A DNA stretch of 64,000 bases from Escherichia coli. GTDB taxonomy: Bacteria; Pseudomonadota; Gammaproteobacteria; Enterobacterales; Enterobacteriaceae. The number at the start of each line of letters is the position of its first letter. Positions within the stretch are counted from its first letter, which is position 1. The stretch lies in assembly GCF_044324785.1 (NCBI RefSeq), contig NZ_CP172127.1; one strand, given 5' to 3'. The position numbers were made by a program, and so were the translations under genes. Below the pieces are notes generated by a model. The model saw only the letters and a program-made list of their open reading frames with translations, did not search any database and was not told the origin of the DNA. Below, piece by piece: positions 57,349 through 58,409 of this stretch.

Positions 57349-57672
57349 ATGGATGCACAAACACGCCGCCGCGAACGTCGCGCAGAGAAACAGGCTCAAT
57401 GGAAAGCAGCAAACCCCCTGTTGGTTGGGGTAAGTGCAAAACCAGTTAACCGCCCTATTCTCTCGCTGAATCGCAAACCGAAATCACGAGTAGAAAGCGC
57501 ACTGAATCCGATAGACCTTACGGTGCTGGCTGAATACCACGAACAGATTGAAAGCAACCTGCAACGTATTGAGCGCAAGAATCAGCGCACATGGTACAGC
57601 AAGCCTGGCGAACGCGGCATAACATGCAGAGGACGCCAGAAAATTAAAGGTAAATCTATATCACTTATTTAG
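57349..57672 (+). CDS. N: Antitermination protein N (lambda-type)
   Basis: From ATG 57349: [90 protein letters not shown]..., near-identical to lambda N as I recall it. Confidence 0.9.
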
Positions 57673-58168
57673 AAAATGCAGATTTAGGGAACAGATAGGA
57701 GGCGTTACACCTATGGCATCTCATCCTATGGTTAGAAGGTGGTGCAAATCCTTCGTATTGAAGTATGGATTTCACAGAAGATTCATAGCATTGAGCGCAA
57801 AGATAGTGCATTGGCTGACCGGTATTTGCCGATTTTTTGAGACGATAAACCACCGTAGCAACAGTAGGTGTATACATCTCATAGTTTTTCTTTTCCTCTT
57901 CCCACTTAGAGGCTCGATTTATCTTTTCTTCAAGCTCAATAATCTTGTCCTTAGAAATCATCAAAAGCTCATTAAGTGACATTTGCTGCTGTTGGGCATC
58001 CATGAGCTTATCGACAAGTTCGTATGTTTTTTCTTTTACTGAGTAGTCTATTTGCATTTTCTGGATTTCCTTTACTGCGCCAACAGCACTCATCAGAGCA
58101 CCTCCGGCACCAGAAACTGCATCTGTAATCCTACTTATTATTCCTTTTTCATCAGACATATAAATCAC
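57665..58168 (-). CDS. Hypothetical coiled-coil/Zn-ribbon protein (about 164 aa), antisense to the PL operon
   Basis: AT-rich; central coiled coil and C-terminal CAQC...CHRC; convergent with N. Confidence 0.5.
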
Positions 58169-58369
58169 TCTCTTACTGTAGGGGTAAGAGGATTTTACTA
58201 TTTTTCTCGCTGTAGGGGTACACGAGAACCACCGAGCCTGATGTGGTTAAAAGACAGGCATACTAATAAACACTGCACTGTGTATTCATTCCAACGAGTG
58301 AATACACGGAGCAATGTCGCTCGTAACTAAACAGGAGCCGACTTGTTCTGATTATTGGAAATCTTCTTT

Positions 58370-58396
58370 GCCCTCCAATGTGAGGGCAGTTTTTTT
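58370..58396 (+). terminator. Intrinsic terminator (tL-like) within the early-left operon
   Basis: GCCCTC-CAATGT-GAGGGC hairpin followed by AGTTTTTTT. Confidence 0.7.
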
Positions 58397-58409
58397 GACG
58401 GAGTAAACG

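Follow-up and report, generated by a model that had tools for sequence, protein, structure and literature searches.

The window, by which we mean the whole 64,000-nucleotide stretch of Escherichia coli DNA that was analysed (contig NZ_CP172127.1), holds a lambdoid prophage in which the plus strand is the PL direction. Next to the antiterminator gene N, and on the opposite strand, lies the gene that is called rip1 here. This gene and the elements on its N side are as follows, with coordinates counted from the first nucleotide of the window and the two coding sequences taken from the list of open reading frames.

55985-56671, cI-like repressor gene
57092-57120, PL-like promoter
57177-57191, nutL boxB hairpin, GCCCTGAAGAAGGGC, which we take to be the lambda nutL boxB; read on the minus strand, the complement of the hairpin with a T-run is the first site resembling a terminator that follows rip1 (terminator-like scan)
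57350-57672, plus strand, N, a lambda-type antiterminator gene
57665-58159, minus strand, rip1 coding sequence, 164 amino acids, ATG start

Comparison with phage lambda gives 95.6% identity over the stretch that comprises PL, nutL and N. Lambda homology ends at the N stop codon (57672) and restarts at 58175. As the original prediction had it, an open reading frame of 164-167 amino acids runs opposite to N and converges with it (57665-58159 or 58168); the two genes are arranged tail to tail, and their 3′ ends overlap by 8 bp. The longer version (57665-58168, minus strand, 167 amino acids) begins with an in-frame GTG at 58168. This start was rejected, since it leaves zero spacing from the AGAGAG ribosome-binding site and since both the homologues and the chain of known structure described below use the ATG. 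Indeed, the homologues all begin with MSDEKG or MSxxKG and the solved chain has 164 residues, so that the ATG is the real start of rip1.

With a G+C content of 39.6%, rip1 lies below both the window (48.9%) and the prophage (47.5%). The gene had been described as compositionally foreign, and AT-rich it is. However, it is just modestly foreign for its part of the phage, where the neighbours span 34-43% (41-43% in the neighbouring immunity-region genes and 34.5% in the next gene). Conserved flanks, an orientation opposite to that of the surrounding genes and a differing base composition are all present, as in a moron, which is an autonomous transcription unit acquired by a phage genome. A terminator of its own directly downstream is lacking: the scan for terminator-like sites found no convincing one on the minus strand between 57665 and N. 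With none before the complement of nutL boxB, transcription of rip1 may continue antisense across all of N. A search of Rfam over positions 56900-58900 gave no match above threshold.

Further small genes are found on either side of this segment. On the plus strand, a 104-amino-acid open reading frame (56668-56982) sits in the rex/bstA position, where it overlaps the cI-like repressor gene at its stop codon, and belongs to phrog_10450, a family of unknown function; it is a candidate for a further lysogen-expressed gene. On the other side of rip1, an 82-amino-acid ‘anti-restriction protein’ is encoded on the plus strand (58410-58658, phrog_14587, 34.5% G+C) between tL2A-like and tL2B-like terminators. 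Relative to HK620 this gene is an insertion between two terminators, and it replaces ral and orf28 of lambda.

The identity of the rip1 product emerged from a phmmer search of the PDB. Residues 3-164 match chain L of entry 9oox, ‘ring interacting pore 1 (Rip1)’, with E = 1.4e-105 and one mismatch, which is a tyrosine at position 96 of the window protein in place of a histidine in the solved chain (Y96H). The entry, released 2026-02-04, is titled ‘Cryo-EM structure of the Escherichia phage HK446 Rip1 in complex with the Enterobacteria phage T6 small terminase’. A profile built from 109 homologues also matches 9oox (3e-56). Structure prediction, which had been proposed as a check, leads to the same place: an AlphaFold model based on these 109 homologues (pLDDT 86) matches 9oox_M with E = 8e-18, a target-normalised TM score of 0.86 and an rmsd of 2.1 Å over 126 residues, and the model has no other significant match in the PDB.

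The model places helices at residues 2-34 and 39-90, followed by a small beta domain. The helical region and C-terminal CxxC…CxxC that had been read from the translation are thus both recovered, and the four cysteines (C121, C124, C148 and C151) are the sole invariant columns among the 109 homologues. This combination of a long helix with a C-terminal four-cysteine zinc-ribbon/beta domain is the fold of Rip1. Searches of the rip1 product against Pfam, NCBIfam and PADLOC returned no significant match, zinc-ribbon families in Pfam giving weak, sub-threshold matches. The family-library match that was obtained is phrog_1244 (E = 4.3e-53 over residues 12-163), which is annotated ‘unknown function’.

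At the level of individual genomes the correspondence is equally close. The gene is 99.4-100% identical in HK446 (gp37), ev099 and vB_EcoP-720R6, with 99.4% to HK446 by tblastn, and the DNA is 99.3% identical to HK446 over 1.4 kb spanning N, rip1 and the next gene. The same gene, at no less than 99% identity, occurs in 95 of 5,426 complete E. coli genomes, where it is annotated ‘hypothetical protein’ throughout. We are therefore highly confident that the open reading frame is rip1, a single-gene anti-phage defence of HK446-type lambdoid prophages, and the 95 copies can be annotated accordingly. The suggestion that the gene is a moron with a defence function was well founded, as the gene proves to be that of a prophage defence protein solved together with a phage small terminase.

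For phage HK446 the rip1 gene has already been described, as have the structure of its protein and the ring of phage small terminase that this protein targets. The two proteins are one residue apart, have 164 amino acids each and share a fold, and in both phages N adjoins the gene at one end, while a sieB-type promoter and a gene for anti-restriction lie at the other end. Unlike HK446, the prophage in the window has P22/Sf6-like packaging genes and a different immunity region.

Recent secondary sources describe Rip1 as a defence encoded by prophages. A 2026 preprint (bioRxiv 10.64898/2026.04.30.721860) counts it among the systems that sense the small terminase subunit. The preprint likewise cites TerI as a small-terminase sensor, whereas Avs1-3 differ from Rip1 in being large STAND NTPases that sense the large terminase. 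[quoted passage not shown]

The literature and the title of the PDB entry point to a mechanism in which Rip1 would be made from the prophage and would recognise the small terminase of an invading phage, a subunit that forms a ring. Assembly of 12 Rip1 on the 11-subunit ring would then, as the reported structure suggests, block phage replication through a pore. The terminase ring may be contacted by the C-terminal zinc-ribbon/beta domain together with the long helix. Residues ∼7-30 form a Gly/Ala-rich N-terminal helix, where the hydrophobicity of the protein is highest and the confidence of the model lowest, and they appear to be the best candidate for a membrane-active segment. It counts against the proposed mechanism that no transmembrane segment is predicted in Rip1, the highest mean hydrophobicity over 18 residues being 0.40.

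Another activity that could be assigned to the rip1 product is superinfection exclusion, in which the protein would act early to block the entry of incoming DNA rather than sense the small terminase late in infection. Two homologues speak for it. A paper on the structure of the Pseudomonas phage JBD30 (PMC11445458) includes gp30 among the morons, with the entry ‘blocks phage genome injection (Tsao et al. 2018)’, and the HK620 record annotates HkaP as a ‘putative superinfection exclusion protein’. JBD30 gp30 has the length of Rip1 (164 amino acids), the same four cysteines and membership of phrog_1244, and it is likewise reported to protect the lysogen from phage; the step at which it is described as acting, genome injection, is a different one. 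However, this protein is only 30% identical to the rip1 product (BLASTP 6e-26) and its description is second-hand. Moreover, the near-identical HK446 protein was solved bound to the T6 small terminase, which is a cytoplasmic late protein, the preprint has Rip1 sensing that subunit, and the rip1 product carries neither a signal peptide nor a transmembrane segment. An early block at DNA entry is for these reasons improbable.

Even less credible is that the rip1 product is a zinc-ribbon coiled-coil regulator that binds DNA or RNA to control phage or host gene expression rather than acting as a defence effector. Zinc ribbons often bind nucleic acids, the gene is situated within the immunity/early regulatory region, and the sub-threshold Pfam matches are to zinc ribbons. 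Yet neither Pfam, NCBIfam nor the PDB provides a significant match to a DNA-binding family, the partner in the solved complex is a protein ring and not a nucleic acid, and members of the family also occur in unrelated phages at positions that are not regulatory.

Upstream of the coding sequence, the DNA between rip1 and position 58260 belongs to a conserved module whose elements are the following.

58160-58185, minus strand, predicted 26-nt 5′ UTR with an AGAGAG-type ribosome-binding site, beginning with the second ACCCCTACAG copy (P22 annotation transferred by alignment)
58169-58205, plus strand, PL-strand hairpin with a 9-bp stem and a U-rich tail (terminator-like scan; dG -10.5 kcal/mol, z = -2.2)
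58175-58260, minus strand, conserved sieB-slot upstream module, with 87% identity to the 86 bp that immediately precede sieB in lambda
58176-58186, direct repeat copy 2, CTGTAGGGGTA on the plus strand, which reads TACCCCTACAG on the rip1 strand; located at the predicted start of transcription
58192-58222, minus strand, predicted sieB-type promoter (TGTACC...TAAAAT), by homology to the annotated P22 sieB promoter; conserved in six phages
58210-58220, direct repeat copy 1, CTGTAGGGGTA, overlapping the -35 region of the sieB-type promoter

The module is present in 143 phage records and is common to lambda, P22, VT1-Sakai, HK620 and vB_EcoM-606R2. In P22 (NC_002371) a ‘sieB promoter’ and a ‘sieB RNA start site’ are annotated on the homologous sequence, and transfer of this annotation by alignment predicts that rip1 transcription starts at A58185. 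The homology of the promoter also suggests that rip1 is expressed in the lysogen. A scan for sigma-70 consensus promoters did not call the sieB-type promoter, which is weak by consensus and has hexamers that match poorly.

Two copies of a repeat 30 bp apart had been noted in this region. Both copies of CTGTAGGGGTA are there, and they occur exactly twice in the 64-kb window, but their spacing is 34 bp start to start, with a 23-bp gap. On the rip1 strand, the 10-bp direct repeat ACCCCTACAG is invariant at the -35 region and at the predicted +1 in six diverged modules; what varies is the spacer that separates the -10 hexamer from the second copy. Both copies are invariant regardless of cargo, which is sieB in lambda, P22 and VT1-Sakai and a Rip1-family gene in the window, HK620 and vB_EcoM-606R2. 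We know of no described function for this repeat.

The upstream region of phage HK620 is 97.9% identical to that of the window, with the -10 hexamer TAAAAT intact, whereas its HkaP protein is only 27% identical to the rip1 product. The sequence switches right at the start codon, which indicates that hkaP is a distinct allele under the same promoter. HkaP and its homologues in HK629 and HK630 also share with the rip1 product the slot and membership of phrog_1244.

The same conservation bears on whether rip1 is a silent passenger in this prophage, an intact frame that is unexpressed through a weak promoter or non-functional through a difference of the Y96H type: although the promoter hexamers are poor matches to consensus, the strict conservation of gene and promoter module across the 95 genomes, and the fact that position 96 is not a conserved column, make this most unlikely.

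An active rip1 might nevertheless be turned down during the prophage’s own lytic growth. Transcription from PL, antiterminated by N, would cross rip1 and its ribosome-binding site antisense and head-on, and would probably lower Rip1 synthesis. The hairpin at 58169-58205 stands, in antisense, directly opposite the ribosome-binding site and 5′ UTR of rip1; it is found in the HK620/HK446-type module and is not conserved in lambda or P22. This hairpin could serve for pausing or termination in the manner of tL1, or it could mark the 3′ end of an antisense RNA. Shut-off of rip1 driven by PL in lytic growth, giving self-immunity, would fit the invariant repeat, the antisense hairpin and the lack of a rip1 terminator. 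In the case of P22 sieB, the sas antisense RNA acts in a comparable manner.

The sieB gene is the nearest known precedent for the arrangement as a whole. SieB, in work that reportedly goes back to Ranade and Poteete in 1993 and is cited in PMC7067206, is said to be an abortive-infection membrane protein, from which P22 protects itself by the sas antisense RNA and by Esc, a truncated product. In P22 and lambda sieB/esc occupies the same slot, antisense between N and ral/cIII, behind the promoter module described above, and its general role is a prophage-borne function against other phages. The proteins themselves have no similarity (BLASTP E = 9.4) and fall into different families (PHROG 6399/1301 for SieB and 1244 for Rip1). 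Unlike sieB, rip1 has no conserved internal start of the Esc kind. The rip1 gene thus sits in the classical sieB slot as another cargo, one that had already been characterised, and the configuration is not new.

An internal methionine, Met23, follows a GGAGGT at a distance of 6 nt, which is close to an ideal ribosome-binding site (58091-58108, codons 18-23, minus strand). Initiation there could yield an N-terminally truncated Rip1, reminiscent of the way in which Esc is made from sieB. An internal start at Met23 was judged unlikely, as position 23 is a lysine in nearly all homologues, and the GGAGGT is probably a by-product of a conserved GAGG peptide motif.

Since sieB, hkaP and rip1 are alternative cargoes behind one promoter module beside N, the slot is worth searching for further prophage defences. 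A stronger version of this idea would make the sieB module a fixed ‘expression socket’ that carries regulatory logic of its own and is reused by the unrelated defence cargoes sieB/esc, hkaP and rip1. We offer that version tentatively and consider it rather doubtful.

The original prediction had assigned the entire 230 bp upstream of the gene to its control region. The proximal ∼100 bp (58160-58260), with both copies of CTGTAGGGGTA, indeed belongs to rip1. The distal part (58265-58395) consists instead of elements of the PL operon, and these are the inverted repeat and the PL-strand terminator that had been noted in the same stretch.

58277-58310, plus strand, strong hairpin containing GTGTATTCA (58280-58288), N10 and TGAATACAC (58299-58307), with a 14-bp stem, dG -20.2 kcal/mol and z = -6.7 against shuffled sequences
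58368-58396, plus strand, intrinsic terminator of the PL strand, a stem (58368-58389) followed by seven T; homologue of HK620 tL2A

Both elements are present as described, with GTGTATTCA-N10-TGAATACAC at 58280-58307. The block that contains them is 97.7% identical to lambda 33925-34055, which lies downstream of ral and about 340 bp from the sieB promoter, and the HK620 record annotates the matching terminator as tL2A of the PL operon. The position in lambda and the HK620 annotation together show that both elements are part of the leftward early operon and not of rip1. A role of the inverted repeat as an operator of rip1 was rejected, given that in lambda ral and orf28 separate it from the sieB promoter.

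Beyond the sieB slot, the Rip1 family is broad. At E ≤ 1e-3 it comprises 1,878 cluster representatives, and phrog_1244 scores are 2.7e-61 for JBD30 gp30 and 7.9e-51 for HkaP. Homologues were found in the sieB slot of E. coli and Proteus prophages, directly after a cI-like repressor gene, and antisense between TerS and TerL in Casadabanvirus, all of them positions from which expression by the prophage is typically expected. The Casadabanvirus members are JBD30 gp30 and its homologues in D3112 (orf25), DMS3 and MP38, each of which is, like rip1, a moron made up of a single antisense gene in a temperate phage. The TerS-TerL antisense slot of these Pseudomonas homologues is also that of Tab/anti-Tab in the Pseudomonas phage JBD26. 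Tab acts late in infection and is likened to the Rip1 homologues by slot alone; it has 83 residues, and its target is the tape measure protein.

On the metagenome contig SRR22388008_611692 (203-1305), the gene of a Rip1 homologue with 34% identity begins where a cI-like HTH-Peptidase_S24 repressor gene ends, at its stop codon. This arrangement suggests that the Rip1 family also uses the repressor-operon slot for expression in the lysogen. A 2,879-amino-acid match with 36 ‘stretches’ was discarded as spurious, being a low-complexity tandem-repeat sequence. The ‘overlapping exclusion genes’ of Fc02, which adjoin the repressor of another phage, are of a different family.

Self-tolerance could also come about with no antisense control, if Rip1 ignored the small terminase of its own prophage. 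That protein is encoded on the minus strand at 43778-44218; it has 146 amino acids, belongs to phrog_309, and matches Sf6 gp1 over its C-terminal 37 residues. The genes that follow it encode P22/Sf6-like large terminase, portal, scaffold and coat proteins.
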